From Bacillota bacterium (lineage in GTDB: Bacteria; Bacillota; Sulfobacillia; JAMCWA01), in the NCBI GenBank assembly GCA_023475165.1, contig JAMCWA010000088.1:130298-194297 (forward strand): a DNA stretch of 64,000 bases. The letters run 5' to 3'. The notes under the pieces are model-generated. The model was not told the origin of the DNA. It saw nothing but the letters and a program-made list of their open reading frames with translations, and ran no database searches. The position numbers were made by a program, and so were the translations under genes. How positions within the stretch are numbered: the first letter of the stretch is position 1; each line of letters begins with the position of its first letter. Shown one piece after another: positions 2,110 to 62,303 of the stretch.

Positions 2110-2200
2110 ATGAGGAACTACCATGAAACAAACCAGCCACTTCCAGGGCGACGCTCGGGCGTTGCCGTCCTCGCTTTCCGTCACCTACGCCGACCGTATC
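2110..2200. repeat. fragment of A-module repeat (reverse orientation)
   Basis: 'aaacaaaccagccacttccagggcgacgct' matches 'aaacaaaccagctacttccaggacgccgctgctgtttc' at 33150. Confidence 0.4.
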
Positions 2201-2314: not shown

Positions 2315-3883
2315 TTATCTCTTAGGCGGTGATTCGACCCTGACCGTCAACGTCTCCGCCTCCCAGGTTACCGTCGCCCCTGCCAGTTTCTCCGCCACAA
2401 AACGGACCGGAACCAATAGGCGCCCTCCCTGAAGTAATGGCGTAACATCCATGGAAAAGTACTGACTTCCCAGCCCGGCTGTGGTTAAGTGGGCCTTCCG
2501 ACGACCTGACCAGAGCTTGAGGGAGCGTCCATTGAGTTCCAGTACCGCCGCCTCTTCTTCCTCCAGCCAGGTTACCCTGGCCCCCATGGCCGTGGCCAGG
2601 AATCTGCCCGGGGCCAAGACCCGTCCCGTATCGAAAAAGGGTGCCACATCTGGAAAAACCACCGGCTGCCCATCCAGCTTGATGGTGAGTCCCTTCCAGG
2701 CGTCCAGACGGCCCACCTGGGACAGGTAAAGGCTCCCCTCCGCCACCAGCGGTGCGGCCACCGCCTTTTCCGCCAAAGGCCATTCCGCCTTCTTCCGGCC
2801 ACTGGTAGAATCCAGGAGGATGAGCCGGGACGGCTCTCCTTCGATCTCAAAGCTGGTGACAATGTAAACGCCTTCGGCCGTGAGCAATGGGGCTTCAATC
2901 ACGGGCCAGTACTTCCTCGTCCCTTTGCGTACCGGCTCGTGGCGAAAGACCCACTTCAACTGGTAATCCCCCGGATTAAAGCCATAGACCTCTCCCCATT
3001 CACTGGCGACCAGGAGGTCGGCCCGCAGGGCTAGGCCTTGCCACTTGTTGTCAGGGGAGCGGTATTCCCAGAGTTGCTTTCCCGTGGCCAAGTCCAAGGC
3101 ATAGAGACCTCCCCCATCTCCAGAAGCTGCCACAAAGACTCGGTCATCGGTGATGACAGGAAGGCTGTCCAGGGCCCCTTTCCCTGGTATCGTCTGCGAC
3201 CAGAGCAGCCGCCCCGAGTCGGAATCCAGGGCCAGGACCTGACCGTTGTGGGTGCCGACTACCAATCGTTTCCCGGCCAGGGCCGCACCGGCCCGGAACA
3301 GGTCATTGCCGGTATCGTACCGCCAACGCAGGGCACCGGTCACGGCGTCGAGGGCATAGAAGCTCCCGTCAGAGGACCCGAAGAGCACCAGATCCTGGGC
3401 CGCCAGCAAAGAACCGCTGATCCAGCCGGCCGTAGGAAACTCCCAAAGGCCCCGGCCGCTGGATGCCTCCACCGCCCGGACCAAACCCCCGTAGTCAGAC
3501 AGAAAGACACGGTCTTGGTCCACCGTCGGGCTACTCCTGATGCGCTGGGAAGAGGGCAGGCTCCAAAGGACGGCGCCCGTTTTTTCGTCCAGGGCATAGA
3601 ACCGACCGCTCTCACTGCCCAAAAAGACCCTCTCGCCGGCCAAGACCGGGCTGCTCCGGAACCGTTCTGGCAGACGGAAAGACCAGCGCGGATAAAGAAC
3701 ACTTCCAGGGCGCTCCTCGGAGGAACGCTGGCGTTGCTCATTGCCCCCTTCCAAAGGCCATTCCCCGGCCTGAACCCGGAGGCCGAACGACAGAAAGGTC
3801 ACCAGAGCCAGCACCGCAAAAAGCCGCCCGATAATACCACGCCGCAGGGTCCGTTCCCCCGGCCTTTCCGCAGTTGCAGCCAT
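2315..3883 (-). CDS. membrane-anchored PQQ-repeat beta-propeller protein with C-terminal copper-amine-oxidase-N-like domain
   Basis: Repeated 'G.LYALD..TG...W' beta-propeller motifs. N-terminal TM segment 'IIGRLFAVLALVTFLSF'. C-terminal 'LVPVRFVAEKLGATVTWEAETLTVRV' matches the Cu-amine-oxidase N-domain. Start is probably the internal Met at about 3883; the ORF itself runs to 4054. Confidence 0.6.
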   Translation of the reverse strand: MAATAERPGERTLRRGIIGRLFAVLALVTFLSFGLRVQAGEWPLEGGNEQRQRSSEERPGSVLYPRWSFRLPERFRSSPVLAGERVFLGSESGRFYALDEKTGAVLWSLPSSQRIRSSPTVDQDRVFLSDYGGLVRAVEASSGRGLWEFPTAGWISGSLLAAQDLVLFGSSDGSFYALDAVTGALRWRYDTGNDLFRAGAALAGKRLVVGTHNGQVLALDSDSGRLLWSQTIPGKGALDSLPVITDDRVFVAASGDGGGLYALDLATGKQLWEYRSPDNKWQGLALRADLLVASEWGEVYGFNPGDYQLKWVFRHEPVRKGTRKYWPVIEAPLLTAEGVYIVTSFEIEGEPSRLILLDSTSGRKKAEWPLAEKAVAAPLVAEGSLYLSQVGRLDAWKGLTIKLDGQPVVFPDVAPFFDTGRVLAPGRFLATAMGARVTWLEEEEAAVLELNGRSLKLWSGRRKAHLTTAGLGSQYFSMDVTPLLQGGRLLVPVRFVAEKLAGATVTWEAETLTVRVESPPKR

Positions 3884-7034: not shown

Positions 7035-7125
7035 GAAGACCTCTCCTAAGCTTTCTCGGGCGGGTTTACCACTCACAGCACAGTTCGTCAGCAGTCTGCT
7101 AAGTGTTCGCCGGAGACGCGAAGCG
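7035..7125. repeat. B-module fragment of dispersed repeat family
   Basis: 'ctttctcgggcgggtttaccactcacagcacagttcgtcagcagtc' matches 'gatttctcgggtgggttaaccactcagaacgcagtttgtcagcggtc'. Confidence 0.5.
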
Positions 7126-11709: not shown

Positions 11710-11910
11710 ATGAAGACAGCTCTCGGGACCACAAGTTTGGCTGATGTCCTGGATCGTATCCTCGACAAGGGCATCGTCATCGACGCCTGGGCCAAGGTGT
11801 CTCTGGTCGGGATAGAGATCCTGGCTGTGGAAGCCAGGGTGGTCGTCGCCTCGGTGGCCACGTGGATCGAGTACGCCGGGGCCGTAGGACTGCTGGAAAC
11901 CGTAACGTAA
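11710..11910 (+). CDS. gvpA: gas vesicle structural protein GvpA
   Basis: 66 aa. '[53 protein letters not shown]' is a near-canonical GvpA core. RBS GGAAAGGGG. Confidence 0.95.
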
Positions 11911-12078: not shown

Positions 12079-12993
12079 ATGATCGTCAGTAATTCCGTCA
12101 GGATACTGGAACTTGAAGCATTAACGGACGTCGTCGTCACCCCGTCCGTTCGCGAGGTAGCCGAGAGGGCTCTGGCCTACCTGCGCTGCGGTTTTCCCGT
12201 GAACTTCAGCGGCCCCGCCGGCACCGGCAAGACCACCATGGCCCTTTTGGTCGCCCGCGAACTGGGACGTCCCGTCGTCCTGCTCAACGGAAATGAAAGG
12301 ATGTATAGCACCAGCCTTATCGGTGGCCCCTACGGTTACCGCCACAAAAAAGTGGTCGATAACTACATTCGAACCGTCAGTAAAGTTGAGGAAGAAGTTG
12401 TGGAGGAATGGGTCGATAGCTGGTTGTCGGTGGCCTGCCGAAATGGTTATACCCTGCTCTATGATGAGTTTACCAGGTCCCGCCCCGAGGCTAATAACGC
12501 CCTCCTTTCGGTTCTGGAAGAGAGAATCCTCATCCTACCTGTGCCGCGGGGTGAGGAGGGTTCGATAAACGTACATCCCAACTTTGCCGCTATCTTTACC
12601 AGCAACCCTGAGGAGTACGCCGGCGTCTTTCAAGCCCAAGACGCTTTGCTGGATAGAATGGCCACCATCAAGCTGGACTATTATGATCAGGATACTGAGG
12701 CCAGTATCGTCAGATCCAAGACCGGGCTGGAGTCCGACGACGCCGAAAAGATTGTTTGCCTCGTCCGCTTTCTCCGGCAGAAAAAGGAGATCAAGCCAAA
12801 GCCAAGCTTACGGGCCGCTCTGATGATAGGCCGGATGCTGAAAGTGGATGGCGGTCACGCGGAACCAGAGAATCGCTTTTTCCTGGAGACTTGCCTGGAC
12901 GTTCTCGCAGCCGCCGGCACTTCCCGGGAGAAAATGGCCACTCTAATCAGGCTTTGGTTCAAGGGGGTAACTGGCCGGCATCCAGACGAATAG
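12079..12993 (+). CDS. gvpN: gas vesicle AAA+ ATPase GvpN
   Basis: Walker A 'GPAGTGKTTMA' of the CbbQ/NirQ/GvpN family. Start chosen at ATG 12079 ('MIVSNS') with RBS GGAGTGGG. Confidence 0.9.
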   Translation: MIVSNSVRILELEALTDVVVTPSVREVAERALAYLRCGFPVNFSGPAGTGKTTMALLVARELGRPVVLLNGNERMYSTSLIGGPYGYRHKKVVDNYIRTVSKVEEEVVEEWVDSWLSVACRNGYTLLYDEFTRSRPEANNALLSVLEERILILPVPRGEEGSINVHPNFAAIFTSNPEEYAGVFQAQDALLDRMATIKLDYYDQDTEASIVRSKTGLESDDAEKIVCLVRFLRQKKEIKPKPSLRAALMIGRMLKVDGGHAEPENRFFLETCLDVLAAAGTSREKMATLIRLWFKGVTGRHPDE

Positions 12994-13059
12994 CATAGGG
13001 ATGAGAGATGTTCCATGACGCCCTGGGCGGCTGGCGCAAGGAATGAAAAAGCCGCGGTG

Positions 13060-13175
13060 TGGCGACGGGTGGGCGATTGCCGGCCAAGCGATTTCACCTA
13101 GCCGAGCCCGCCACGATGCGGTCGGCGTAGATGACCCAAAGCGAGGACGGCAATCGCCTGTGCGTCGCCCATTGG
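13060..13175. repeat. degenerate inverted-repeat element related to the C-module of the dispersed repeat
   Basis: 'gggcgattgccggc…gcgaggacggcaatcgcctgtgcgtcgccc'. A second copy lies at 62200–62255 in the same orientation relative to its downstream gene. Confidence 0.5.
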
Positions 13176-13183
13176 CAAAGAAG

Positions 13184-13945
13184 GTGTTTGAATTGTCGAC
13201 TTTCATCTACCTCTACGGAGTAATCGACTCCGGACTGCCCCAGTCCCTGGGTTCGGTGAAATTGGGCTCCCTTCCCCGCGAGGTCCGCACCCTGCCCCTG
13301 GAGGAAATAGCAGCTCTGGTCAGTGAGACGGATGAGCAGAACTTTCTCCCCACCCCGGACGATGTCTTGACCCACGAGAAGGTCCTGGAAACGGCCATGG
13401 CCGAGCACACAGTATTACCGATCCGGTTTGGAACTGTGGCCGGCAGTCTTGAGGACGTCCAGGTCTTCCTCAAGGAAAACTACCGGGAGCTTGCAGCCAA
13501 CCTAAGCCAGCTGCGGGGCAAGGTGGAGGTGGGGGTGAAGGCCTTCTGGCACAAGGAAGCGGTTCGTCAGGAGGTGGAACGGGAAGTCGGTCAATTGGCC
13601 CGGCTCAAACAGGAACTGCGGCAAGCTCCCGGTCGGCAGCAAGAGATAGGCCTCGCCGTGGGCCAGGCGACCGAGGCTGTCATCGAGCGCTGGAAGGAAA
13701 CCCATGTCCAGTCTTTTCTGGCTACCCTCCAGGAATATTCTCTGAAAACGAAGATTAATCCGCCCATTAGCATCCACATGCTCCTGAATGCCTCCTTCCT
13801 GGTGGAGCGAGATCAGGAGCCTGGTTTTCGCTGTCGCGTTTTGGAACTGAGCCAGGTCTATACAAAGAAGTTTGGCATAAAGTACGCCGGACCCCTTCCC
13901 CCTTACAACTTTGTTGACGTCAGGCCGGTCCTGCCACAGAGGTGA
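13184..13945 (+). CDS. gvpF: gas vesicle protein GvpF/GvpL family
   Basis: 'YLYGVIDS...VSETDEQNF...HEKVLETAMAEHTVLPIRFGT' is the GvpL_GvpF signature. GTG start at 13184 with AAGAAGG RBS; the upstream part of the listed ORF is repeat-derived. Confidence 0.85.
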   Translation: MFELSTFIYLYGVIDSGLPQSLGSVKLGSLPREVRTLPLEEIAALVSETDEQNFLPTPDDVLTHEKVLETAMAEHTVLPIRFGTVAGSLEDVQVFLKENYRELAANLSQLRGKVEVGVKAFWHKEAVRQEVEREVGQLARLKQELRQAPGRQQEIGLAVGQATEAVIERWKETHVQSFLATLQEYSLKTKINPPISIHMLLNASFLVERDQEPGFRCRVLELSQVYTKKFGIKYAGPLPPYNFVDVRPVLPQR

Positions 13946-14235
13946 CTGGGATGCCGGAAATGAAGCTCTCTTCCCTCGATCTACTCTTCCTTCCGTTAGC
14001 CCTGCCTGCCAAGGGTCTTTGGTTTATCTTGGAGCAGATCACCGACCTGGTCGATAAAGAACTCTACGACGAAGGTACCCTGCGACGAAAACTCCTCGAT
14101 CTGCAGGTTCTTTATGAGCTGGGGGAAATACAAGACGAAGAGTATCGCCAGTCCTGGAAGGACATTACAGCGCGACTGCAGTTCCTGCGCCAACAACAGC
14201 TGAGCGATGAAAACGAAGGAAGGCAGGGGGTCTGA
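13942..14235 (+). CDS. gvpG: gas vesicle protein GvpG
   Basis: 97 aa. 'LVDKELYDEGTLRRKLLDLQVLYELGEIQDEEYRQ' matches GvpG. Start overlaps the gvpF stop (ATGA). Confidence 0.8.
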   Translation: MTGMPEMKLSSLDLLFLPLALPAKGLWFILEQITDLVDKELYDEGTLRRKLLDLQVLYELGEIQDEEYRQSWKDITARLQFLRQQQLSDENEGRQGV

Positions 14236-14240
14236 TTGAC

Positions 14241-14669
14241 GTGGCCTTGCAGGCAACCAAGGGCAGCAGCGGAACCTTGGTCGATGTCATCGACCGGCTC
14301 CTGGATAAGGGTCTGGTGATCAATGCCGACATCCTGGTCTCATTGGCGGGGGTGGAGCTCTTGGGGATCAAGATCCGGGCAGCTCTGGCCTCCCTGGATA
14401 CCGCCGCCAGGTACGGTCTTGAGTTTCCCTCCGGCACCAATTATAACACCCAGGCCTGGCGAGCCCTTGATACGGGAAGAGAAAGCTGCCCTCAATGCGG
14501 AAAAACGGCGACAACCGCGGAACTCCTGGAAGAGGGCTGTCCGTGGTGCGGTTGGAAGAGTGCCAAAGCCCGCCTGAAAGAAGCCCAGATGGCCCTTCCT
14601 GAGGTTGAGAAGGTTAACGTAAACCCACCGGAGGAACTGTATAACCCGGACGGACCGGCGGTCGGCTAG
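14241..14669 (+). CDS. gvpJ: GvpA-family paralogue (GvpJ-like) with C-terminal CxxC…CxxC zinc ribbon
   Basis: 'LVDVIDRLLDKGLVINADILVSLAGVELLGIKIRAALASLDTAARYG' is a GvpA fold, followed by 'CPQCGK…CPWCGW'. Confidence 0.85.
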   Translation: MALQATKGSSGTLVDVIDRLLDKGLVINADILVSLAGVELLGIKIRAALASLDTAARYGLEFPSGTNYNTQAWRALDTGRESCPQCGKTATTAELLEEGCPWCGWKSAKARLKEAQMALPEVEKVNVNPPEELYNPDGPAVG

Positions 14670-14800
14670 AAGACCGCTGAAAAACACCCATCTGCGGTGT
14701 GGCGCAATCGCCAGGAGAAGTTCTCCGAAAATGTGGCGTAACTATAGGCGATTGTGTCGCTCCGGCGGCTTGGTGCTCAGCCCATTTCGGGAATTTGGAG
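14666..14800. mobile_element. truncated MITE-like repeat (TIR plus C-module) inserted between gvpJ and gvpK
   Basis: 'ctagaagaccgctgaaaaacacccatctgcggtgtggcgcaatc…gattgtgtcgctccggcggc' matches 30224–30330. Its CTAG contains the gvpJ TAG stop. Confidence 0.7.
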
Positions 14801-14816
14801 CCAGGATGCTCTACCC

Positions 14817-15119
14817 ATGACCATACAAATCAACGAGAACAACCTGAAGGATGGCCTTTTGGCCCTGGTTCTGGCCCTGGTAGAAATCATAGGCGACGTC
14901 CTTCAACATCAGGCCTTCCGCCGGATGGAGGGTGGCCGTTTGACGGAGGATGAGGTCGAGAGACTGGGTCAAGCCCTCCTGGACTTGGAGGAAGCCTTAG
15001 AGAAGATTAAGCGGGAACAGGGGATCTTTGAGGCGGTCCGGGCCGTACGCCATGGTTTGGATGACGTGGTGGACGACTTCCTCGATCGGGTCATGAATCC
15101 CGCGCGTTGGAGGGATTAA
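14817..15119 (+). CDS. gvpK: gas vesicle protein GvpK
   Basis: 'NLKDGLLALVLALVEIIGDVLQHQAFRRMEGGRLTEDEVERLGQAL' matches GvpK. Start is ATG 14817 after a GGAG RBS; the 21 N-terminal codons of the listed ORF lie inside the repeat. Confidence 0.85.
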   Translation: MTIQINENNLKDGLLALVLALVEIIGDVLQHQAFRRMEGGRLTEDEVERLGQALLDLEEALEKIKREQGIFEAVRAVRHGLDDVVDDFLDRVMNPARWRD

Positions 15120-15123
15120 GGCG

Positions 15124-16518
15124 ATGGGTGAATCCCCGGATTTCCGCCTGGCCTATCTATACACCATCCTGGCCCTTTCCGCCGCCGGCAAGGAAGTCAA
15201 CCGGGAAAACCTTTTGGAGCTTCTGCCTTTGCTGGGGCTTCCCGTTGAGGAAGCCTATTTGGAAGCCCTCCTCCGACTGACCCAGATGCTGGCGCCGGCT
15301 TCTAAGAAAACAGGGGAGCCATCCTCTCTCGGCAGTCCAGTCCTGGCCGAGGGACCTGACGCATCCTGCAGCCCAGCCTCCAGCTCAGAGGGATTCCGGT
15401 TGGGGCGTCCTGACAAGACCAGGACCGAGCCCCCTGCCGATAAGCCTCCCCCAGGAAGCTGGCCTCAAGTAAAGCCGGCCGGGCCGGGATGCTGGCCCAG
15501 GACAGAACCCGCCCCGAGAGGGCATCCTGGGGGAACCAGGCCGGAACCCACAACTGAGAACCCCTTTGCGGCGAGGCCAGAAGGTACTCCGGCTGAGCGC
15601 CCCACCGAGACCAGTCCGGAAGCGTCCGTGACCGGGCCTGCCAGCCAAGCCACCCCGGAACTCTCGGCTGACCATCACCTTCCGACCCGGCCGGGGCTCG
15701 AGCACGCCGAGTTTCCCGGTGAGGCTGAGGCTCAGGCCAAATCCGACTCCCAGCTTTCCGGTCGCTATCTCTATGGGATAGTCCTGACCGATGCTTCCAG
15801 GAGCCTGGGCTACATAGGTCTGGACAAGGGCCTGGTTTATGTCATCTGCGACGGTGGGGTGGGCGCCATTGTCCAGGCCTGTTCCCCAAGACCCTATGTT
15901 TCAGAAGACGAAGAGGTGGTCAAGAAGTGGATCAGTACCCACCACGAGATCCTGGAGTCGGTCATCCAGATATTCGGTACCGTCCTCCCAGTCGGCTTCA
16001 ACACCATCTTCCAGAGCGGCGCCGGCGACCCCGATCAGGTCGTGATCCAATGGCTCTCCGAGAACCGTTCTGACCTCCTGGGCAAGATCGAAAGGGTCCG
16101 GGGAAAATGGGAGTATGGAGTACAGGTGTTCCTCAGTCCCGGCGAAATCGGCGAGAGTCTCCTGGCCAACGACCCCGACCTCAGGAGAACAAAAGAAGAA
16201 GCGAGAACAAAGTCCCCCGGTCTGGCCTATATGTATACCCATAAGTTGGAGAGGACCCTCAAGGAGCGCATCGCGCAGATCTCTGAGCTATACTTTCAGG
16301 AGTTCTACCAGACCATCAAGGTCCATTGCGAAGAGGTACGCGTTGAGAAGACCCGGCCTTGGCCGGACGGTCGACAGATGATCCTGAACCTCTCCTGCCT
16401 AGTCCGAGAGAGCCAGGTCCAACAGTTGGGCGAGGACCTCGAATCCCTCCACCGGCGTACCGGGGTTTCTGTCCGATTCACCGGTCCCTGGCCACCCTAC
16501 AGCTTTGTAAGCCAATAG
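15124..16518 (+). CDS. gvpL: GvpL/GvpF-family protein with N-terminal aL12/P-stalk-like domain and long disordered linker
   Basis: C-terminal 'YLYGIVLTDA...VSEDEEVVKKWISTHHEILESV…LPVGFNT' is a GvpL_GvpF domain. Residues 1–60 read 'FRLAYLYTILALSAAGKEVNRENLLELL…VEEAYLEALLRL'. Residues about 60–200 are P/E/T/S/A-rich. Confidence 0.8.
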   Translation: MGESPDFRLAYLYTILALSAAGKEVNRENLLELLPLLGLPVEEAYLEALLRLTQMLAPASKKTGEPSSLGSPVLAEGPDASCSPASSSEGFRLGRPDKTRTEPPADKPPPGSWPQVKPAGPGCWPRTEPAPRGHPGGTRPEPTTENPFAARPEGTPAERPTETSPEASVTGPASQATPELSADHHLPTRPGLEHAEFPGEAEAQAKSDSQLSGRYLYGIVLTDASRSLGYIGLDKGLVYVICDGGVGAIVQACSPRPYVSEDEEVVKKWISTHHEILESVIQIFGTVLPVGFNTIFQSGAGDPDQVVIQWLSENRSDLLGKIERVRGKWEYGVQVFLSPGEIGESLLANDPDLRRTKEEARTKSPGLAYMYTHKLERTLKERIAQISELYFQEFYQTIKVHCEEVRVEKTRPWPDGRQMILNLSCLVRESQVQQLGEDLESLHRRTGVSVRFTGPWPPYSFVSQ

Positions 16519-16600: not shown

Positions 16601-16912
16601 ATGAAGCCTACGGGTACTGCGCAAGCTACCTTAACCGACCTGCTGGACCGAGCCTTCGACAAGGGGCTGGTCTTAACCGCCGATGTCATCATCAGCGTCT
16701 CCGGGATTCCCTTACTCGGTCTCAACATACGGGCCATTTTGGCCGGTATGGAGACCTTGCTGGAGTACGGAATCATGGCCGACTGGGATAAAGCCCAGAG
16801 GAAGGCCTTTAGGAAAACACCGCAGAGGAACCCGCTGATCTTTTCTGAAAAAGGGCCGTGGCCGATTACTGGAGGGTCAAACCTATGCTCCACGAATCTC
16901 TGCCCCGATTAA
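16601..16912 (+). CDS. gvpS: GvpA-family paralogue (GvpS/GvpM-like)
   Basis: 'ATLTDLLDRAFDKGLVLTADVIISVSGIPLLGLNIRAILAGMETLLEYG'. ATG 16601 with a GAGGG RBS. Confidence 0.8.
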   Translation: MKPTGTAQATLTDLLDRAFDKGLVLTADVIISVSGIPLLGLNIRAILAGMETLLEYGIMADWDKAQRKAFRKTPQRNPLIFSEKGPWPITGGSNLCSTNLCPD

Positions 16913-17298
16913 GGGGGTTCCGCCAGTTGAAAAGTGGCCTGGATCTGACTCGCAGGCGAGAACCCAAAACCAGGCACTCCCTTACCCGCTTAGAGGAAAA
17001 CACCCCGGTGAGGGTAAACCGGCTCTCCCTGGCCAGGAGAATGCGAAGGGCAAGAGACTTTTTTGCCCGCCTACAGGCAAGCGTCACTGGCTTTCAAGAG
17101 AGAATGCTGCGGCAACGGGAAAAGCTCAAGGCGTTAAAAGAAGAAAACCGCCGGCTGGCACAATACCGACTGCGCGGCCAGCGGGAGGAGCAGAACGGGT
17201 CAAAAAACGCCCGGGAAAAGCCTGGACCGGCCCTTTCCGGCGCAGCGCTAAATCAACCCCAGGGAGGAGCAACAAGAAGATGGATTTGGATAAAGTGA
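16885..17298 (+). CDS. hypothetical basic, Arg-rich coiled-coil protein in gvp locus
   Basis: It fills the 370 nt gap between gvpS and gvpO. GGAGGG RBS before ATG 16885. 'RMLRQREKLKALKEENRRLAQYRLRGQREEQ' is a predicted coiled coil. No recognisable family. Confidence 0.4.
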   Translation: MLHESLPRLRGFRQLKSGLDLTRRREPKTRHSLTRLEENTPVRVNRLSLARRMRRARDFFARLQASVTGFQERMLRQREKLKALKEENRRLAQYRLRGQREEQNGSKNAREKPGPALSGAALNQPQGGATRRWIWIK

Positions 17299-17549
17299 TC
17301 CAGCGAGGCGTCTCCACCGTCAAGGAGCTCACCGGCTTGAAACCTTCCACGGTTACGGGAATCAGTCTGGAAGCAGGCAAATGGCTTCTCAGCTTGGAAA
17401 TGGTGGAGATGTCTTCCATTCCCAATGCCATGGACATCCTGGGTCTCTATGACGTCCAACTGGACGAAAACGGGTCACTGCTCTCTTTCCAACGTAGAGG
17501 CCTCCGCCGCCGTGGTGATACCCCAGAGGGTAAACTGGATACAGATTGA
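17280..17549 (+). CDS. gvpO: gas vesicle protein GvpO
   Basis: 'SIPNAMDILGLYDVQLDENGSLLSFQRRGLRRRGD' matches the GvpO C-terminal motif 'DIIGRYEITLD..G.V..YE...RYRRGD'. Confidence 0.75.
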   Translation: MDLDKVIQRGVSTVKELTGLKPSTVTGISLEAGKWLLSLEMVEMSSIPNAMDILGLYDVQLDENGSLLSFQRRGLRRRGDTPEGKLDTD

Positions 17550-25769: not shown

Positions 25770-25995
25770 CTAGGAGATCCCCATGCCGCCTTTTGGCGGC
25801 GCCAAAGAGTAATGAAACAGCAGCGGCGCCCCGGAAGCAGCTGGTTTGTTTCAGGATAGACCCCCATGCCGCCAGCGGCACCAGCAGATGATGAAAACGG
25901 CCGCGGCATGGTGATTGTGGCAGGCGAACGACTGGCGGAGCGCCGGAGTGAGCCGGGACAACGCTCGGCCAAGAAACCTTATTTTCAGGATAGAC
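25770..25995. repeat. two tandem A-module copies
   Basis: 'ccccatgccgccttttggcggcgccaaagagtaatgaaacagcagcggcg…ctggtttgtttcaggatagacc' is followed by a variant 'ccatgccgccagcggcacc…gcggcatgg'. Confidence 0.7.
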
Positions 25996-28782: not shown

Positions 28783-28802
28783 TTCTTCTCACCTCCTCAG
28801 TC

Positions 28803-29187
28803 CTAGATTTCCATGCCGCCTGCGGCGGCACAAAGAATGAAACAGCAGCTAACTCTTTGCTGGGAGATCCCCATGCCGCCTTTTGGCGGCGCCAAAGAGT
28901 ATTGAAACAGCAGCGGCGGCCTGGCAGTAGCTGGTTTGTTTTAGGGTAGAGTGCTGACAAACTGCGTTTTGAGTGGTTAACCCACCCGAGAAACCGTTAG
29001 GGCGAGAGCTCAAATCAGCCCAGATGCTAGGAGCAACAAGGCTCCGAGGCGAGGCGTACTGGGCGGTACGTTGAGCGAGGAGCCGACGGAGCGACAATCG
29101 GCAATAGTAACGCCCCTTGAACAAGGTGGATCTTTCTTGCAGATTGCGCCACACCGCAAGATGGGGGTTTTTCAGAAGTCTCCTAGG
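28803..29187. mobile_element. full composite repeat copy (A-A-B-C plus TIR) inserted between dpaB and dpaA
   Basis: It ends '…ttttcagaagtctcctagg'. The CTAG supplies the dpaA TAG stop. A 17-bp tandem duplication 'gacgtcggcaaactctt' follows, at 29187–29220. Confidence 0.8.
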
Positions 29188-30081
29188 ACGTCGGCAAACT
29201 CTTGACGTCGGCAAACTCTTCAGGAAACTCCCTGGCCAAAAAGGAGGCAACAACTTGGAAAATGGCTCGTCCTGCCGTCCTGGGAGCGACCTTGCCGGGC
29301 AACCCCAGAGCCCAGATCGTCTTTAGGCCTAGCTCCCCGGCTCCTGCAAAATCGGTTCCACCGGGGGCGGAAGCCAGATCAATGATCAAGAGTTCAGGTT
29401 GGGCTTTCCCCAAGACCTCCCGGTTCAGCACCAGCGCCGGGATGGTATTAAAGACTACTGTACCCTCCCGGATGACCGCGCCCAGGTTGCGAAGGGGCAC
29501 CGGGCAGCAGCCCATCTCGGCGGCCCGGGCCAATTGCGCCGGGTTTCTGGCCACGACCACTGTGCGCGCCCCCAATCCGCAAAGCATTCTGGCCAGGGTC
29601 AGCCCCGTCCGCCCCAGTCCTAGAACCAGGGCGGTACTGCCGTGCAGGGTCACTGGCAGGTTCTCCATGGCTACTTGCAGGGCCCCTTCCGCGGAAGGAA
29701 TGGAGTTGAGAATGGCAAAGTCGTCACGCTCCCGGTAAGGTATGACCCTAACCCCAGCGGCCGCCGCAGCTACTTCCAAAGCCGGATTACTGCTGCCAAA
29801 AAAGAGGAGGCCCCCCTTCTGCATGGACGCCAGGGCGGTTTCCTCCAGCTTCATTTCGCAACCGTAAGCGTTCTTAATACCTCCAGAGGAGTCCAAGCCC
29901 AAAACCGGGCCTACGACCAGACGGGCACCGGCCAGGGCTTCCGGCAGACCGCGGGTGTAGCCGATGCCCTCCGGCACAAGATTAACCGGGCAACCAGCAA
30001 TAACCACTTCCTCCACCCAACCGCGAAAATAGCCGGCCGCCTCTACCTCCCTTCTATCACCTACCAAGATGGCCAGTTTCA
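29183..30081 (-). CDS. dpaA: dipicolinate synthase subunit A
   Basis: Rossmann 'GLGRTGLTLARML'. Start at 'MKLAILVGD' (30081). The last 11 codons are encoded by the 17-bp duplication and the element CTAG. Confidence 0.85.
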
Positions 30082-30223
30082 TGTTGTCCCTCCGCCCCTC
30101 CGAATCAACCTCCGTCCTCGGCCCCACCCGGGTTCTTCGCGCCAACCTCCAGCCTCCAACCTCTAACCTCCGCCCTTTTGGCCTATCCCAGTATATGTGA
30201 CCCGAAGTCTGTGGGTGCCTGCC

Positions 30224-30465
30224 CCTAGGAGACCGCTGAAAAACACCCATCTGCGGTGTGGCGCAATCTGCAAGAAAGAACCTTTTCATTAAAGGGCGTT
30301 GCTATTGCAGATTGTCGCGCCTGCGGCTGGTGCTAACGTATTTCTCTATGCGCCTCCGCGCCAAGCCTTGTCGCTCCTAGTATCTGGGCTGAATTGAGGT
30401 CTCGCCTTAACGATTTCTCGGGTGGGTTAACCACTCAGAACGCAGTTTGTCAGCGGTCTCCTAGG
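30224..30465. mobile_element. MITE-like element (C+B modules) with perfect 15-bp terminal inverted repeats
   Basis: 'cctaggagaccgctg…cagcggtctcctagg'. No ORF. The C and B modules match seven or more other loci. Confidence 0.85.
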
Positions 30466-30593
30466 TTCCTCTGGCATTAGGGACGGCAAAGCCCCGCCGC
30501 CCTTGGGAGATCATTGCCAAGGCCGGTCTGCTGCCCTGTCGCTGAAGCTTTCGAAGGGTCGCCAAGAGCTTTGAAGTCTAGAAATCTCATGAC

Positions 30594-30628
30594 TGAAAAA
30601 AAGAGCCCCTGTCTCGGACAGGGACTCC
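30594..30628 (-). terminator. rho-independent terminator downstream of the YflT-like gene
   Basis: Minus strand: CCCTGTC-cga-GACAGGG, then GCTC TTTTTTT. Confidence 0.7.
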
Positions 30629-30654
30629 CCGGTCAGACCGATGTTTCCAAGTTT

Positions 30655-30705
30655 CTCGAGCGAGTTAACCATTCAAGACGCAGTTCATCTGCTGTCTCCT
30701 AGTGG
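30655..30705. repeat. B-module fragment
   Basis: 'gagttaaccattcaagacgcagttcatctgctgtctcctag'. Confidence 0.5.
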
Positions 30706-31196
30706 GTCTCAACATCAGTGGCACCGTTTTGCCGGAGGATGGAGGCTGCCTCACTCACCTTCTTCTCATCGGATTTAATGACGGTCAGGATGCTGCCCCG
30801 CTTAACTTCTTCCTCATAAAAGCGACCCCTGGCCTCGGGGATCCCCAGGTCCAGCAGTCCACCAGCGATGCCCCCGGTTACAGCTCCGGTCAAACCGGCG
30901 GCAATGGGTCCAGCCGCCAGGATGGGACCGACCCCGGGTATAGCCAGGGCTCCCGCCCCGGCCAGCAGGCCGGCCAAACCGCCAATGGTTCCACCGGTTA
31001 GAGTACCGTTAGAAAGGTTGTCATTGGCGAAACCACCGCCCTGCCCGCCTCTTGTACCAGTCTGACCGCCCCGAGCGGTAGCTTCCTTGGCCACTATGGA
31101 GATCTCGTTGTTGGTAAAGCCTTTTCTGCGCAAATCGTCAACAGCCGTCTCAGCTTGTTGTCGTGACTTAAAGACACCGATCACCGTCTTGGACAT
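30699..31196 (-). CDS. YflT-like general stress protein with glycine-zipper segment
   Basis: 'VIGVFKSRQQAETAVDDLRRKGF…ISIV' N-terminus. 'GGLAGLLAGAGALAIPGVGPILAAG' is a glycine zipper. C-terminus 'ILTV…ASILRQNGATDV'. Confidence 0.55.
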   Translation of the reverse strand: MSKTVIGVFKSRQQAETAVDDLRRKGFTNNEISIVAKEATARGGQTGTRGGQGGGFANDNLSNGTLTGGTIGGLAGLLAGAGALAIPGVGPILAAGPIAAGLTGAVTGGIAGGLLDLGIPEARGRFYEEEVKRGSILTVIKSDEKKVSEAASILRQNGATDVETH

Positions 31197-31294
31197 TTAA
31201 AAACCTCCTTCTTGTTGACCTACCATTAGTATGAGAAGGAGGCGCCTGGCTTTATTCAATTTCTGAAGATCTTAACAACCCAAAGAGCGAAAAC

Positions 31295-31615
31295 CTAACG
31301 CCTTTGCCCGCGCAGGGTTAAGCCAAAATAGGGCTGGAGGATGGCCAGGAGCATGGCCAGGGCTGCCAGTGGGTCAAAGGCCATTCCCCACAGCCCGATC
31401 CGATCGGGCGGGTTAAGTTTGAGAAATTGGATGATCCCGGCCAGGGCCAAATAGATTCCGGCGGCCATGGCCAGAAAGTCTTTGAGGGCATCCGCCAGAG
31501 GAGAGGCGACGGCTGGAGTCTCCTCCCTGGTCGTCACCCGTAAGGACACCCGCCGTACTATCGAACTTACCACCAGAAGAAAGAGGATGGCCACCGCCAC
31601 TGGGGTCATCGCCAT
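31295..31615 (-). CDS. hypothetical small membrane protein
   Basis: 106 aa with 3 predicted TM helices. No family recognised. Confidence 0.35.
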   Translation of the reverse strand: MAMTPVAVAILFLLVVSSIVRRVSLRVTTREETPAVASPLADALKDFLAMAAGIYLALAGIIQFLKLNPPDRIGLWGMAFDPLAALAMLLAILQPYFGLTLRGQRR

Positions 31616-31619
31616 GTCC

Positions 31620-31710
31620 CTGCTCCCCCCTGGGAGACCGCTGGAGAACTCCCATCTGCGTGCCAGGCGGGCTCCCGCCCGTCTGAAACCGCAGTTCGTC
31701 AGCAGTCACG
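31620..31710. repeat. repeat fragment (TIR plus B-module end)
   Basis: 'gggagaccgctggagaactcccatctgcg…aaaccgcagttcgtcagcagtc'. Confidence 0.5.
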
Positions 31711-31905
31711 ACAATAGTTGCTTAATATCTTGTATGCCCGCAGGTCGCAAAAAAGACCGGGCTGGGCCGCTTTGCCTTCCCACGCCGGGCAAAAAAAATC
31801 CGAGTCCTCCTCGGTGTTTGGTTTTCAGGGTCAGCACCTCGGCCAACCCCTTGCCCAGCTGTGATGACGACAGGTTGGCACCTACTGGTGGCGAAAAAGC
31901 ACGCT

Positions 31906-32112
31906 CTATCTACCGCTTTGCAACCTCAAAGCCCGGACGATCAGGAAATCCAGTTGCCGTGAGAGGGTCCACACCGCCTGAATCCTCCCGCTATCGTATT
32001 CAGGCCCGCTGTCCTCTTGCAGCTGCCTTCGGAGTCGCTCGATCTCCAAGAGCAGCTCTGCTTCGCTCAAAAACGACCTCGTCCTCCTTTTTTTCTCTTT
32101 TGAGGTGAACAA
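31906..32112 (-). CDS. Spo0E-like sporulation regulatory phosphatase
   Basis: 68 aa. 'LLLEIERLRRQLQE…LSRQLDFLIVRAL' resembles the Spo0E helix-hairpin motif (SQELD.LI). Confidence 0.5.
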   Translation of the reverse strand: MFTSKEKKRRTRSFLSEAELLLEIERLRRQLQEDSGPEYDSGRIQAVWTLSRQLDFLIVRALRLQSGR

Positions 32113-32251
32113 ATCGCCAAATAGTCGCCTAATCCTTCAGCCAGGCTCAACCATATGCGATTATACTACACTCCCCCGGTCACGTCCAATTAAATCGATC
32201 GCAATTTCCGACAAGATCATACCCTTCAGATCGACTTTTTTCGATAAAAAA

Positions 32252-32715
32252 CTATTTCCGTAGCCCAGTATGGCCAAAACCTCCCGCCCCACGCTGCGTC
32301 GCCTCCAGTTCCTCAACCTCGACCAGTTCCGCCCGAAGCACCGGTTGGAGGACCAATTGGGCGATCCGGTCGCCGCGCCGGATGACAAAGGGCTCTTTCC
32401 CGAGGTTAATGAGAATAACCTGGACCTCTCCCCGGTAATCACTGTCAATGGTACCGGGGCTGTTCAAGAGGGTTACCGAATGTTTGAGGGACAGACCGCT
32501 CCTGGGACGCACCTGACCCTCGTACCCGGGTGGAACGGCCAAAGATAACCCCGTCGGGACCAGGGTCACCCCTCCAGCCGGTAGCGTTATTTCCGCCTCG
32601 ACGGCGGCGTAGAGATCCATCCCGGCCGCTCCCTCCGTCATGTAGCGAGGAAGAGGTAGATCCTCAGTCCCCTTGCGGCGTCGCACCCGGACGATGATGT
32701 TCTGGCCCTGTCTCA
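32252..32715 (-). CDS. dut: dUTP diphosphatase
   Basis: 'AAGMDLYA', 'RSGLSLKH', '[11 protein letters not shown]', and 'GDRIAQLV'. Start is Met 32715. Confidence 0.85.
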
Positions 32716-32735
32716 TCCGAAAAACCCCCTTTGTC

Positions 32736-33040
32736 TTGGAGACCGCTGGAAAACACCCATCTGCGTTGCCGCAATCCGCCGGAGGACTCTTCCTAAAAAT
32801 GGGACGCGCCTGTGGCGGATTGCCGGGCAATCGGCCCGCAACAACTTGCCATCAAGTCAGGCGTCGGCTAAGGCCGATTGTGGCGCAATTCGCCAGGGGA
32901 GCTTTCCTGGTCAGATGGTGCATGACTACGACGAATTGTGTCGTTCCGGCGGCTCCTCACTCAACGTACCGCCCAGTACGCCTCGCTTCGGAGCCTTGTC
33001 GCTCCTAGCATCTGGGCATTCTTGAGCGGTCTTGGCCCAA
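32736..33040. mobile_element. composite repeat copy with internal duplication
   Basis: 'cttggagaccgctggaaaacacccatctgcg…ggcgattgtggcgcaat…cttgtcgctcctagcatctgggc…gagcggtcttggcc'. Confidence 0.7.
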
Positions 33041-33089
33041 CAGTGTGGCTAAAGCCGTCAGAAGGACTTTCGTTATCAAGCCTTTTATA

Positions 33090-33243
33090 GACTATGGCGT
33101 CTTTCCTCGGGCAGGTAACCACTCAAACCGCAGTTCGTCAGCATTCTACACGGAAACAAACCAGCTACTTCCAGGACGCCGCTGCTGTTTCACTACCCTT
33201 TGGCGCCGCCAAAAGGCGGCATGGGGGTCTCCTAGGAGACCTT
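33090..33243. mobile_element. B(partial)+A modules in reverse orientation ending in an abutted TIR–TIR palindrome
   Basis: '…ggcggcatgggggtctcctaggagacc'. The CTAG supplies the TAG stop of the M16 peptidase. Confidence 0.7.
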
Positions 33244-34494
33244 CTCCCGCCCGCCAGGAAGGAGACGGCTCAGCCGCTTTTCACTGATTGGTCCAACCGC
33301 CGCCGCCGACAGGTCATCAATCTGCAATACCAACTCGGCGATGGCCGCAAGATCCTCCAGAGTAACGGCCTCAATCTTGGCCAGGAGCTCATCCAAACTC
33401 AAAACCCGGCCAAGCAAGATTTCCGAGCGGCCCAAATGACTCATCCGACTCCCAGTGCCCTCCAGACCCAGCATGAGCCCGCCCTTTAACTGTTCCTTGG
33501 CCCTCACCATTTCCTCCCGGCTTACTTCCCCCTGGCGAAGGGCTTGCATCTCCCTTTGGATCAGGCTAACAACCCGCTCCAGATATCGCGAGCTCATCCC
33601 GGCATAGACGGTGAAAAGACCGGCATCGTCAAAGGAAGACGGATAGGAATAGATGGAGTAAACCAGACCCATCTCCTCCCTCACCTTTTGGAAGAGCCTG
33701 GAGCTGGAGCCTCCCCCCAGGATGGTGTTTAGGACATTGAGCGAATAGTTGCGTTCGTCACCGGTGGGTAGTCCTCTGGTGCCCAGACAGAGATGGACCT
33801 GTTCCGTCCGGCGTTTTTTTAAGAGGACGCCGGGCAAGTCCAGCGGCTTCTCCCCCGTTGGAAGGTCGGACCTGCTTCCCTCCCAGGCGTCAAAAGCCCC
33901 TCCCACCAGGTCAAAAACCTCCTTGGCCTGGACATGTCCGGCTACGGACAGGACGGTCTGGCCCGGAACATAATTCTCTCGAAAATAACCCAAGATGTCT
34001 GCCGCCCGCATTCCTGCGATGACCTCCTTGCTTCCCAGGACGGGTCGACCCAGGGGGTGACCGTCCCAGCGGCTGCGGGCAAAAAGGTCATGTACTTCTT
34101 CATCCGGGGTATCCTCATACATCTTGATCTCTTCCAGGATTACACCGCGCTCGCGTTCCATATCCCCCGGATCAAAGCGAGGTGACAGGATCATGTCGGC
34201 GAGGACCTCGGTGGCTATCCCCAGATGCTCGTCCATGACTTTGGCATAATAGCAGGTATACTCCTTGGTGGTATAGGCGTTGATCTGACCCCCCAGACCT
34301 TCAATGGCTTCCGCCAGCTGGCGGGCTGTCCGCTTCTCCGTCCCTTTGAAAAGGAGGTGTTCGATGAAATGGGAAATCCCAGCCTGATCATCCCTTTCCC
34401 GGCGTGAACCTACTCCTACCCAAACCCCTATGGAGACGGAGCGGACGTGGGGTATTTCCTCCACCAGTATTCTCAGCCCATTGGGCAATACCAT
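33232..34494 (-). CDS. M16 family zinc peptidase (pitrilysin-like)
   Basis: Inverted zincin 'HFIEHLLFKGT' motif. Probable start is 'MVLPNGLRILVEE' (34494); 34530 is an alternative. Confidence 0.8.
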   Translation of the reverse strand: MVLPNGLRILVEEIPHVRSVSIGVWVGVGSRRERDDQAGISHFIEHLLFKGTEKRTARQLAEAIEGLGGQINAYTTKEYTCYYAKVMDEHLGIATEVLADMILSPRFDPGDMERERGVILEEIKMYEDTPDEEVHDLFARSRWDGHPLGRPVLGSKEVIAGMRAADILGYFRENYVPGQTVLSVAGHVQAKEVFDLVGGAFDAWEGSRSDLPTGEKPLDLPGVLLKKRRTEQVHLCLGTRGLPTGDERNYSLNVLNTILGGGSSSRLFQKVREEMGLVYSIYSYPSSFDDAGLFTVYAGMSSRYLERVVSLIQREMQALRQGEVSREEMVRAKEQLKGGLMLGLEGTGSRMSHLGRSEILLGRVLSLDELLAKIEAVTLEDLAAIAELVLQIDDLSAAAVGPISEKRLSRLLPGGREKVS

Positions 34495-39308: not shown

Positions 39309-39324
39309 GACTGCCTGAAAAGGC

Positions 39325-39375
39325 CTCGGCGTGGCGACGGGCAGGTTAACCCGTCAGAACGCAGTTTGTCAGCTA
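39325..39375. repeat. B-module fragment
   Basis: 'gttaacccgtcagaacgcagtttgtcagc'. Confidence 0.5.
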
Positions 39376-45245: not shown

Positions 45246-45292
45246 CGCTAGGAGACCGCTTAAAAAGGGTTTTCCAGCGGTCTCCTAGGTTT
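45246..45292. repeat. solo-TIR palindrome of the MITE family between nusA and ylxR
   Basis: 'gctaggagaccgcttaaaaagggttttccagcggtctcctagg': a 10–11 bp stem with a 14 nt loop. The CTAG supplies the nusA TAG stop. Confidence 0.8.
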
Positions 45293-47134: not shown

Positions 47135-47405
47135 GGCCGCCGAAAAACCTCCCCCTCTGTGGCGCAACCATTTCCTGGTCGGGCAGGCCACTGAAACCCA
47201 GCCGGTCAGTGGTCGCCCAGGAGACTGCTGACGAACTACGTCTTGAGTGGTTAACCCGCCCGAGATACCGTTCGGGCGAGACCGCTCAAAAATGCCCAGA
47301 TGCTAGGAGCGACAAGGCTCCGAAGCGAGGCGTACTAAGTGGTACGTTGAGCGAGGAGCCGCCGGAGCGACACCGCAGATGGGTGTTTTTCAGCGGTCTC
47401 CTAGC
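47135..47405. mobile_element. MITE-like repeat copy (C and B modules, TIRs)
   Basis: 'ggccgccgaaaaacc…gttaacccgcccgagataccgtt…cagcggtctcctagc'. The TIR encodes the last 5 codons and the TGA stop of murC. Confidence 0.8.
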
Positions 47406-54311: not shown

Positions 54312-54557
54312 CCTAGGAGACCGCCGAAAAACCCCCCTCTGCGGTGTGGCGCAATCTGCAAGAAAGAACCTTTTTATGAAAGGGGCCTTACCATTGCAGA
54401 TTGTCGCTCCGGCGGCTCCTCGCTCAACGTACCACCTGGTACGCCTCGCCTCGGAGCCTTGTCGCTCCTAGCATCTGGGCTGATTTGAGGTCTCGGCCTG
54501 GCGGTATCTCGGGTCGGTTTTACCATTCAAAACGCAATTCGACGGCCGTCTCCTAGG
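54312..54557. mobile_element. MITE-like repeat copy (C+B modules, TIRs)
   Basis: 'cctaggagaccgccgaaaaacc…gcggtgtggcgcaatctgcaagaaagaacc…gccgtctcctagg'. The CTAG supplies the scpB TAG stop. Confidence 0.8.
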
Positions 54558-55849: not shown

Positions 55850-55885
55850 CTTGAAAGATGAAGCTTTTTCAGCGGTCTCCTATCT
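55850..55885. repeat. TIR fragment
   Basis: 'gctttttcagcggtctcctatc'. Confidence 0.4.
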
Positions 55886-56855: not shown

Positions 56856-56980
56856 TGAGATGACTCCTTTCGCCACAAAGGCACTTCGGCGTACTGCCTC
56901 CCGGGCCAACCGCCTTTACCGGGCAATATCGGCAGGAAGGGCTGACACTAGTTTTAACTCTCCCGTATCTCCTGGCTCCG

Positions 56981-59088: not shown

Positions 59089-59590
59089 AGGTACTTCACT
59101 CCTCCATAAATTGATGGAAAGATAGGCTGCTCCGGGTCGGGAGGCGGCCCGGTGGGAGGCCCGGCAAAGTCTGCCGGCGTCTTGGCTACCATAGCTTTTC
59201 AGCCATCTCCTCCTCACTCCGAACATGACTCGCAACAAATACAAAAACGTCCGAGCGTATCCACCCGGACGCACCTATCCTGGGATACCCCCTCTCTCCC
59301 TCATTGTGAGATAGCGCTCCACTGGTAACCAAGGGAAGAGCCACCAGTGACAGTCCGGCAACTCTTCGTTGCCGGCCCAGCCTGATCACCTGGGCGGTTA
59401 TCAGACTTCGGCGGAGATCCCTTTCCTCGCCCTTCCTGGCTGCCTTGCTCCAGGCGGTACTCTTGATCCTCCGCGCCTCTACCTCACCTCTTGGAGAGAT
59501 GAGGTAATCAGTATTAAATTGACACCGTGCAAGTCAAACCTTGGAACTACTCTAATTTTAACATGTCCACTCTCGGGGCGCAATCATTTT

Positions 59591-62159: not shown

Positions 62160-62199
62160 ATCTACTTTCACCCCCTCTTACTTTCAGGGCGACGCCCGG

Positions 62200-62255
62200 G
62201 CGATTGGTCGTCCTCGCTTGCGGTGCCCGCCGGCAATCGCCCGACCGTCACCAGG
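62200..62255. repeat. degenerate IR element (second copy) immediately 5' of the activase gene
   Basis: Minus-strand sense: 'gggcgattgccggcgggcaccgcaagcgaggacgaccaatcgcccgggcgtcgccc'. It can form a GGGCGATTG/CAATCGCCC stem. Confidence 0.5.
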
Positions 62256-62303
62256 CTACGGCTTTTTCATCCACTGGCGGCGTTAACTCAGGCAGTATGA
62301 AGA

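Follow-up and report, generated by a model that had tools for sequence, protein, structure and literature searches.

The 64,000-nt stretch of DNA analysed here, referred to as the window, carries a gas-vesicle operon on its + strand, the genes of which we delimited from open reading frames, Pfam matches and the gene calls of the NCBI record. The spacer between gvpJ and gvpK holds the left part of a dispersed repeat, whose modules (L, H and M) are described below. The features of the operon, in window coordinates, are the following.

11710-11910, + strand: gvpA
12079-12993, + strand: gvpN
13193-13945, + strand: gvpF
13951-14235, + strand: gvpG
14241-14669, + strand: gvpJ, 142 aa, GvpA/J family (Pfam Gas_vesicle, E=1e-15), TAG stop at 14667-14669
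14666-14669, + strand: CTAG, the end of the element or its target site, with its TAG serving as the gvpJ stop codon
14666-14700, + strand: L module, made up of the left end's terminal inverted repeat (CTAGAAGACCGCTGAAAAAC, with position 5 changed from G to A) and a subterminal CACC...GGTG mini-hairpin
14701-14762, + strand: H module, a conserved hairpin of the form GCGCAATC-stem-loop-stem-GATTG(TG)TCGC
14763-14789, + strand: truncated start of the M module, with the end of element homology at 14784 by nhmmer and at 14789 by pairwise alignment
14754-14816, + strand: spurious 21-codon N-terminal extension of the mechanically called gvpK reading frame, from GTG 14754
14790-14816, + strand: non-repeat gvpK leader, without significant similarity to any part of the element
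14817-15119, + strand: gvpK, 100 aa from ATG 14817 (Pfam GvpK, E=5.6e-19)
15124-16518, + strand: gvpL
16601-16912, + strand: gvpS-like gene
17280-17549, + strand: gvpO

Gaps within the F-G-J and K-L blocks of the operon measure 4-5 nt, as against 147 nt between gvpJ and gvpK. The gvpJ product ends in a C-terminal CxxC...CxxC tail whose length past the motif equals or exceeds that of its homologues, and nothing in this comparison suggests that the insertion truncated gvpJ. A resemblance of the N-terminal domain of GvpL to that of a ribosomal stalk protein found no backing in Pfam, which returned no match even at E=10. The window sequence also matches the metagenome-assembled genome GCA_023379645.1 and the Logan assemblies of runs SRR227461xx.

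The gvpJ-gvpK spacer starts with CTAGAAGACCGCTGAAAAACACCCATCTGCGGTGTGGCGCAATC, and its identity as the left end of a dispersed repeat was established by BLAST of the spacer against the window, by repeat search and by multiple alignment. From 14666 onward it matches copies at 30225, 54313, 29188 (reverse complement), 47405 (reverse complement) and 32735 in the BLAST and repeat searches. With nhmmer and a profile built from four full copies, 14666-14784 aligned to positions 1-119 of the 242-position model (E=2.2e-20), and pairwise alignment to the copy at 30225 extended the homology to 14789. The L module alone is 97% identical to 30225-30258. A reading made earlier from the sequence only had described this spacer as occupied by a truncated MITE copy that begins exactly at the gvpJ stop and is without an internal module and the right terminal repeat. 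The profile match bears out that the copy is incomplete and belongs to a dispersed, non-coding family whose ends are inverted repeats, the profile and pairwise alignments agree on a start at the CTAG that includes the gvpJ stop, and model positions 120-242 (the rest of M, the R module and the right inverted end) found no match anywhere in 11-18 kb in the profile search. The fragment is real, although not at the 135 bp originally given, the detectable stretch being 119-124 bp. It comprises L, a single H hairpin and the first ∼27 nt of M; the remaining M, R and the right end are absent.

Two candidates for the missing part were considered. Local alignments of 14780-14816 against every element copy scored no better than shuffles, and a resemblance of 'CTCTACCC' noted by eye, which might have marked a right-end or R/M remnant within the same interval, was rejected with scores inside the shuffle range. 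A solo R end at 7040-7100 was considered as the lost half; its placement and orientation, with R standing left of L, are not those expected had one element simply been split, and solo R ends are common.

The family has the build L-H(0-3)-M-R, with a model of about 242 positions, and is bounded by CTAGGAGACCGCTGA(A/C)AAAC inverted ends. Four full copies, one composite, one truncated copy and at least eight solo ends or fragments lie in the 64-kb window. The full copies, the composite and two short forms are located as follows.

28948-29188, - strand: full copy, one H module
30225-30465, + strand: full copy, one H module
31630-31710: 80-bp form
32735-33151: composite of about 420 bp with three H modules
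45248-45288: minimal form of 42 bp, two ends back to back
47219-47405, - strand: full copy, H module absent
54313-54555, + strand: full copy, one H module

The full copies span 187-243 bp, sit between annotated housekeeping genes and have no coding capacity, as judged by the lack of any protein-family match inside them. Their L module (∼35 nt) combines the terminal repeat CTAGGAGACCGCTGAAAAAC with a small subterminal hairpin, the H module (∼57-60 nt) is a hairpin of the form GCGCAATC-stem...stem-GATTGTGTCGC, the M module measures ∼78 nt, and the R module (∼70 nt) terminates in ...GTTTGTCAGCGGTCTCCTAG, which repeats the left end in inverted form (19/20). Compared directly, the terminal repeats of the full copies, CTAGGAGACCGCTGAAAAAC and the reverse complement CTAGGAGACCGCTGACAAAC, pair at 19 of 20 positions. 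The gvp copy carries the left terminal repeat only and is a relic, not an intact MITE. H copy number varies from none (47219-47405) through one (the copies at 30225, 54313 and 29188, and the gvp relic) and two (the ENA contig L014, discussed below) to three (the composite at 32735). The seven H copies share a predicted 17-pair consensus stem with compensatory changes in six of the pairs, and this maintenance of pairing could reflect selection on structure.

Neighbours of the family include dpaA/dpaB, dapA, the aspartokinase gene, dut, the M16 peptidase gene, nusA, rimP, a Mur ligase gene, scpA/scpB and trpS, all of those tested being housekeeping genes, and copies are found in both orientations relative to the adjoining genes. 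Since the copies lie beside unrelated housekeeping genes and in both orientations, the element counts as a sequence repeated across the genome and not as a signal specific to gas-vesicle genes. In a scan of the whole window with Rfam 15 at gathering thresholds, only a lysine riboswitch elsewhere passed, and permissive Rfam scans of 14500-15000 and 28800-33300 gave chance-level matches or none. Plasmid BLAST in distant mode found no match for a full MITE copy or for a full metagenomic element of the kind described next.

To place the family we scanned JGI metagenomes for exact matches to the terminal repeat (TAGGAGACNGCTGAMRAAC), which yielded 121 matches on 120 stretches. A C directly precedes 84 of the 121 matches, making CTAG, and an inverted partner within 2.6 kb was inward-facing in 35 cases versus outward-facing in 2. 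The end-to-end distances cluster at 109-173 bp (14 cases) and at ∼1.7-1.95 kb (∼18 cases). All seven of the large elements that were translated encode IS1182-family transposases above the NCBIfam cut-off (NF033551, 280-367 bits), and the transposases of the large metagenomic elements carry the Pfam domains DDE_Tnp_1_6 and DUF772. The link to IS1182 runs through the terminal repeat that served as the search pattern, whereas the partner repeats, the CTAG flanks and the transposases are independent of that pattern and identify the matches as ends of transposons. What is shared is the ends: the interiors of the metagenomic elements are unrelated to L-H-M-R, and the scan yielded no further L-H-M-R members. 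Unrelated interiors are usual for MITEs. No IS1182 transposase bounded by these ends was found within the 64-kb window of this genome. Because the same end sequence bounds, on unrelated metagenome contigs, both elements with IS1182 transposases and miniatures of 110-170 bp, we file the family, by its ends, as an IS1182-type MITE, and the MITE nature proposed earlier for the gvp fragment is supported by a terminal repeat that is also that of IS1182-family insertion sequences and their miniatures. The competing assignment would be to the IS630/Tc1-mariner type. IS630 has CTAG as its insertion site and duplicates the TA within it, and flanking CTAGs look alike after a TA and after a CTAG duplication; the coding content of the full-size elements, with seven of seven tested encoding IS1182-family transposases and none an IS630-type enzyme, nevertheless makes this assignment very unlikely. 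Within the IS1182 family, ISPsy36 of Pseudomonas is reported to use the 4-bp palindromic target GGCC (PMC8027508).

Every full copy has CTAG on either side, and where elements abut they have a single CTAG in common (at 33232 in the window, and in contigs L014 and L058). These common CTAGs lead us to infer that CTAG is a duplicated target rather than part of the repeat; the duplication may comprise CTAG or its central TA, the flanks being compatible with both. The simplest reading points to a transposase that targets CTAG. The tetranucleotide is 3.7-fold under-represented in the window, with 64 occurrences observed against 234 expected from base composition, and element termini make up some 15 of the 64. 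At 6 of these ∼15 termini the TAG is the stop codon of a real gene, as compared with at most 3 of the 49 other CTAGs (Fisher p ∼0.004). The six genes are gvpJ, a dpaA-like gene, a YflT-like gene, the M16 peptidase gene, nusA and scpB. One metagenomic insertion sequence (L037) likewise sits on a TAG stop, that of a 311-aa ORF. A plausible account is that selection would remove insertions inside genes, leaving stops of the form C+TAG as a large share of the tolerated targets. If CTAG is the target and genic insertions are selected against, the gvpJ stop would be older than the insertion.

We compared the locus with related gas-vesicle clusters, as the sequence-only reading had proposed. The two relatives L138 and L139, with GvpK 68% identical, have the gene order F-G-J-K-L-S-x-O as in the window and a gvpJ-gvpK spacer of 16 nt, with a GAGG ribosome-binding site within it, as against 147 nt here. 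This difference, which rests on a 68%-identical relative, supports expansion of the present spacer by insertion. The closest relative found, the Logan contig L010 (GvpK 73% identical), has the order A-N-F-G-K-J-L and no element; its gvpG and gvpK overlap (ATGA) and it is without an orthologous gvpJ-gvpK junction. We considered that the element might have accompanied the gvpJ/gvpK swap, and ruled this out as L138 and L139 share the G-J-K-L order of the window; the swap is more likely specific to L010, and gvpJ-gvpK adjacency is not peculiar to this genome. A GTDB genome scan with GvpK recovered only four loci, ∼63% identical, with gvpK directly after gvpJ in none; wherever these loci have gvpJ, other genes separate it from gvpK, and they are of no use as empty sites. 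In more distant relatives, too, other genes intervene between the two. No empty site at the exact gvpJ-gvpK locus was found among the relatives recovered.

Since the spacer contains a dispersed repeat, we also asked how its assembly compares across samples. Four Logan contigs from four samples cross the junction of gvpJ and the element and end at 14692 (14674 in one), and other Logan contigs begin at 14742 and continue into gvpK. Such breaks at 14692 and 14742 in several samples, together with the divergence of the ENA contig L014 to the left of 14698, might be taken to mean that the spacer is an artefact of contigs misjoined through the repeat. The spacer is, however, identical in the window and in the NCBI contig JAMCQG010000076.1 from a metagenome-assembled genome, two sequences that may not be separate assemblies. 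The two junctions to unique sequence have independent support: the path from gvpJ to 14692 is present in the four Logan contigs, and the path from 14742 or 14698 into gvpK, including the junction of element and gvpK, was recovered from two studies in Logan and ENA contigs. One of these, the Logan contig L140 from another study (SRR28285718), starts at 14742, differs from the window at 42 of 4673 nt (99.1% identity) and shares its truncation junction while carrying a SNP at 14791. L014 has that junction and the SNP at 14791 as well, and for sharing the SNP with L140 it is assigned to the sister strain; it bears two sister-strain SNPs, which marks it as a strain variant and not as a conflicting path. 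An assembly artefact is, on these comparisons, highly improbable, and the truncation junction holds as genuine and as predating the split of the strains.

The left part of L014, a contig of only 573 bp that begins inside the repeat, is arranged differently from the window, which it matches from 14698 on. It reads as an R module end, CTAG, AAGACCGC, an extra H module and then the same H module, and is without 18 nt of L. This arrangement would be explained by a further, complete element having entered at that CTAG, together with module-level indels. The 5' half of the spacer thus appears structurally labile and gives no hint of being under tight functional constraint.

The mechanical reading frame of gvpK runs from GTG 14754 and would fuse 21 codons to the N-terminus of the protein. 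An open frame does exist there, and the possibility that GvpK starts at GTG 14754 with a repeat-encoded extension was weighed against several indications. In the 121-aa ORF the Pfam GvpK match opens at residue 24, which aligns with profile position 2. A total of 473 GvpK homologues (E<=1e-10) align from residue 1-3, and those listed are mostly 100-110 aa long. The N-termini of relatives, MTIEIDENNL (L010) and MAIEIDEGNL (L138) in the closest ones and MPIDIDQDNL in L006, correspond to MTIQINENNL in the window. NCBI, Logan and ENA gene calls all give a GvpK of 100 aa, every caller having chosen 14817, and no Shine-Dalgarno site is evident before 14754. Given the Pfam boundary, the lengths and N-termini of the homologues and the gene calls, GvpK is concluded to start at ATG 14817, as the sequence-only reading had favoured, with the 21-codon extension spurious; a start at GTG 14754 is exceedingly improbable.

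Two details of that earlier account needed amendment. It had treated all 21 codons as repeat-encoded; the first 10-12 are repeat-derived, and the last 27-32 nt are non-repeat leader. It had also placed the start after GGAG, and here the position of the ATG stood and the proposed ribosome-binding motif did not. GGAG at 14797-14800, 16 nt upstream of the ATG, is paired in the predicted fold (unpaired probability 0.10), and AGGA at 14803-14806 lies 10 nt upstream of the ATG in a small loop (unpaired probability 0.40), making AGGA the likelier Shine-Dalgarno candidate according to the fold model.

Folded alone, RNA of 14666-14789 is predicted to form one long self-contained hairpin of -51.8 kcal/mol, and in the context of the 166-nt spacer the predicted energy is -67 kcal/mol (z=-3.4 relative to dinucleotide shuffles). 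Consensus scans detected no intrinsic terminator in 14666-14816 on the + strand and no sigma-70-like promoter in the spacer; the relic hairpin is followed by CCCAUUUCGGGAAUUUGG, not by a U-run. Masking of the gvpK ribosome-binding site by the hairpin is not predicted, the mean unpaired probability of the gvpK initiation region being 0.51 both with and without 14670-14784 (in silico deletion).

A hairpin of this kind could have been co-opted, the L+H structure being selected as an intercistronic RNA that sets the levels of gvpA-N-F-G-J relative to gvpK-L-S-O through an RNase III/E/Y site or a barrier to 3'-exonucleases. The strength and self-contained nature of the predicted structure (-51.8 kcal/mol) would suit such a role, as would the maintained pairing of the H module, with compensatory changes in 6 of 17 pairs, and the conservation of the 3' half of the relic, bar one leader SNP, in a strain diverged by 0.9%. 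Precedents exist for co-transcribed MITEs that alter mRNA stability (PMC2229807; PMC3049150). Against this, the modules occur in both orientations beside unrelated genes, which makes the covariation a feature of the family at large, not one peculiar to the gvp copy; strains appear to differ structurally over the 5' half of the spacer, L014 having one more H module and a deletion of 18 nt, which speaks against tight constraint; and a 16-nt spacer suffices in a relative. We regard co-option as unlikely, and the suggestion of the sequence-only reading that the insertion modulates expression from gvpK to gvpO as speculative. A broader proposal would join it to the target preference: with CTAG rare, surviving insertions of CTAG-targeting IS1182-type MITEs would pile up at TAG stops, so that the family would as a rule place structured RNA modules behind coding regions and between the genes of core operons (gvp, dpa, nusA-infB, scp); in the gvp case the host would exploit the L+H hairpin for RNA processing or stability and in this way fix how much GvpA-N-F-G-J is made relative to GvpK-L-S-O. 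Taken as a whole this proposal is speculative and rather improbable.

MITEs inside operons are well known, and several described systems resemble the present family in part. The nearest are the IS1182-family MITEs of Methanosarcina acetivorans related to ISMac2, which are 160-169 bp long with 25-26-bp inverted repeats and 4-bp duplications (PMC3852290). They too are short, non-coding and multi-copy, with terminal repeats matching IS1182 and a 4-bp flank. In contrast, the family described here belongs to another phylum (uncultured Bacillota) and has larger, modular elements of 187-243 bp (to ∼420 bp) with 0-3 tandem hairpin modules; its gvp copy is a one-ended relic, and the cognate transposase was not seen in the 64-kb window. 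The BOX elements of Streptococcus pneumoniae (boxA-boxB(n)-boxC) likewise have a variable number of internal hairpins between terminal modules, are intergenic, are co-transcribed with their neighbours and have extensive RNA secondary structure, and effects on mRNA stability have been suggested for them (PMC3049150); co-transcription of the family here is presumed from its setting. There is no sequence similarity between the two, and BOX is without an identified transposase partner, whereas the present family has IS1182-type ends and CTAG flanks. Correia/NEMIS elements of Neisseria and ERIC/IRU elements of enterobacteria are also MITE-like repeats found inside operons, and for their transcribed hairpins RNase III cleavage or altered stability of flanking mRNA has been reported (PMC2229807). 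They have no sequence relationship to the present family, their effects were measured whereas the hairpin here is a predicted one, and the gvp copy is truncated. Any influence of the relic on its operon would be of the Correia, ERIC or REP kind. Identity with REP/BIME sequences was ruled out, the ends reading CTAGGAGAC and the element being 190-240 bp long with IS-type terminal repeats. REP/BIME sequences are intercistronic palindromes able to stabilise upstream mRNA; REPs are imperfect palindromes of ∼35 nt that carry a conserved GTAG at the head and owe their mobility to RAYT (Y1) transposases, unlike the present elements, which have IS-type repeats of ∼20 nt and are 5-10 times longer.

Taken together, we consider it likely, with good confidence, that an IS1182-type MITE inserted at the CTAG of the gvpJ stop, later lost its distal half and is now a tolerated relic. 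The element would have entered at a CTAG made up of the last base of the final gvpJ codon and the TAG, leaving the stop intact. Later the right inverted end would have been lost together with the second CTAG, the R module and most of M, leaving an immobile relic of ∼120 bp followed by ∼27-32 nt of native leader with the gvpK ribosome-binding site. The relic widens the spacer from ∼16 nt, as in the relative, to 147 nt. It would be co-transcribed in the gvp polycistron and fold into a self-contained hairpin of ∼120 nt that is not expected to terminate transcription, has no recognisable promoter and, by prediction, leaves access to the gvpK start unchanged. Its most likely effect would be to end any translational coupling of gvpJ and gvpK, with GvpK made from its own ATG 14817; it could also serve as a 3'-exonuclease barrier or as a site for a double-strand RNase. 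On balance the relic is probably a near-neutral, tolerated passenger, and a selected regulatory role for it appears quite unlikely.

The relic leaves the understanding of gas vesicles and of MITEs as it was, and its consequences are practical ones for this organism and its elements. GvpK should be annotated as a protein of 100 aa, not 121 aa. The relic accounts for a gap of 147 nt that stands out in a gas-vesicle operon whose genes are elsewhere closely spaced, and for the breaks in short-read assemblies at gvpJ-gvpK in this organism, and for heterologous gas-vesicle production from this cluster it could probably be removed. Beyond the operon, a dense modular MITE family with IS1182-type ends is documented in an uncultured Bacillota lineage, and a CTAG target in a CTAG-poor genome would offer a simple reason for finding its elements flush against TAG stops.

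CTAG is 3.7-fold under-represented in the window (64 sites observed versus 234 expected), and a window-wide count of this tetranucleotide revealed that six MITE termini fall precisely on a TAG that serves as the stop codon of a real gene:

14666, 29183, 30699, 33232, 45285 and 54553: CTAG sites at MITE termini and TAG stops
gvpJ, dpaA-like, YflT-like, M16 peptidase, nusA and scpB: genes whose TAG stop falls at a MITE terminus

Besides the modular L-H-M-R elements, the window holds a minimal element, a second repeat family and a solo terminal repeat:

45248-45288: minimal element of 42 bp, between nusA and ylxR
25770-25860, 28860-28950 and 33145-33235 (reverse complement): second repeat family, ~91 bp
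2082-2155 and 28812-28842: pieces related to the ~91-bp family
55856-55885: solo terminal repeat at the end of trpS

The minimal element consists of two terminal repeats back to back and nothing else (GCTAGGAGACCGCTTAAAAAGGGTTTTCCAGCGGTCTCCTAGG). Members of the ~91-bp family likewise start with CTAGGAGA (CTAGGAGATCCCCATGCCGCC...GGTTTGTTTCAGGATAGA) and are often joined end to end to L-H-M-R elements. The tryptophanyl-tRNA synthetase ORF (55869-56909, minus strand) ends within the solo terminal repeat, and the element seems to supply its last few codons and TGA stop. On a metagenome contig carrying the terminal repeat that bounds IS1182-family elements (L093; JAABUV010064258.1, 176-2148), an IS1182-family transposase gene lies between outward-facing copies of that repeat, each following an identical CACCAGCCAT; a simple IS structure does not account for this arrangement. 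Elsewhere in the window, a lysine riboswitch was identified at 59304-59489 on the minus strand (115.9 bits).

Two proteins of the gas-vesicle operon have additional regions. Residues ∼80-110 of GvpJ (14241-14669) form a C-terminal zinc-ribbon-like motif, CPxC...CPWCGW, which is also found in gvpJ homologues from Nitrospinae MAGs, Dehalococcoidia MAGs and two unassigned contigs; the 86-amino acid GvpJ of L138, a more distant relative with the window's gene order, lacks it. GvpL has an N-terminal extension:

15124-15760: GvpL residues 1-212, ∼210 amino acids ahead of the GvpL/GvpF domain

Its first ∼55 residues are conserved in L010, the closest relative of the cluster, and are followed by a proline-rich low-complexity linker. 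The extension had no Pfam match; we take it to resemble the N-terminal domain of a ribosomal stalk protein.

In L010 (Logan SRR22746121_21383, 2595-3757) the order of gvpJ and gvpK is swapped (A-N-F-G-K-J-L) and gvpG and gvpK overlap by ATGA, whereas the window's gvpG frame continues into the conserved gvpJ leader (GGGGGTCTG). The truncation junction of the gvpJ-gvpK relic is common to the window and its sister strain (∼99.1% identical), which is represented by two contigs:

L014 (ENA ERZ27236928 k141_337636), 1-196
L140 (Logan SRR28285718), 1-75

Upstream of this junction the sister strain appears to differ from the window: it seems to have an additional H module, to lack 18 nt of L and to carry the end of an R module directly against the CTAG.

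The gvpN-gvpF spacer also contains repeat sequence:

12994-13192: gvpN-gvpF spacer, with dispersed-repeat pieces especially at 13043-13170

Within the window these pieces match 2146-2200 (minus strand), 62187-62270 (minus strand) and 39316-39341, and they belong to a different family from the repeat in the gvpJ-gvpK spacer. Since a second intercistronic spacer thus carries pieces of another repeat family, the gvp operon has received at least two repeat insertions.
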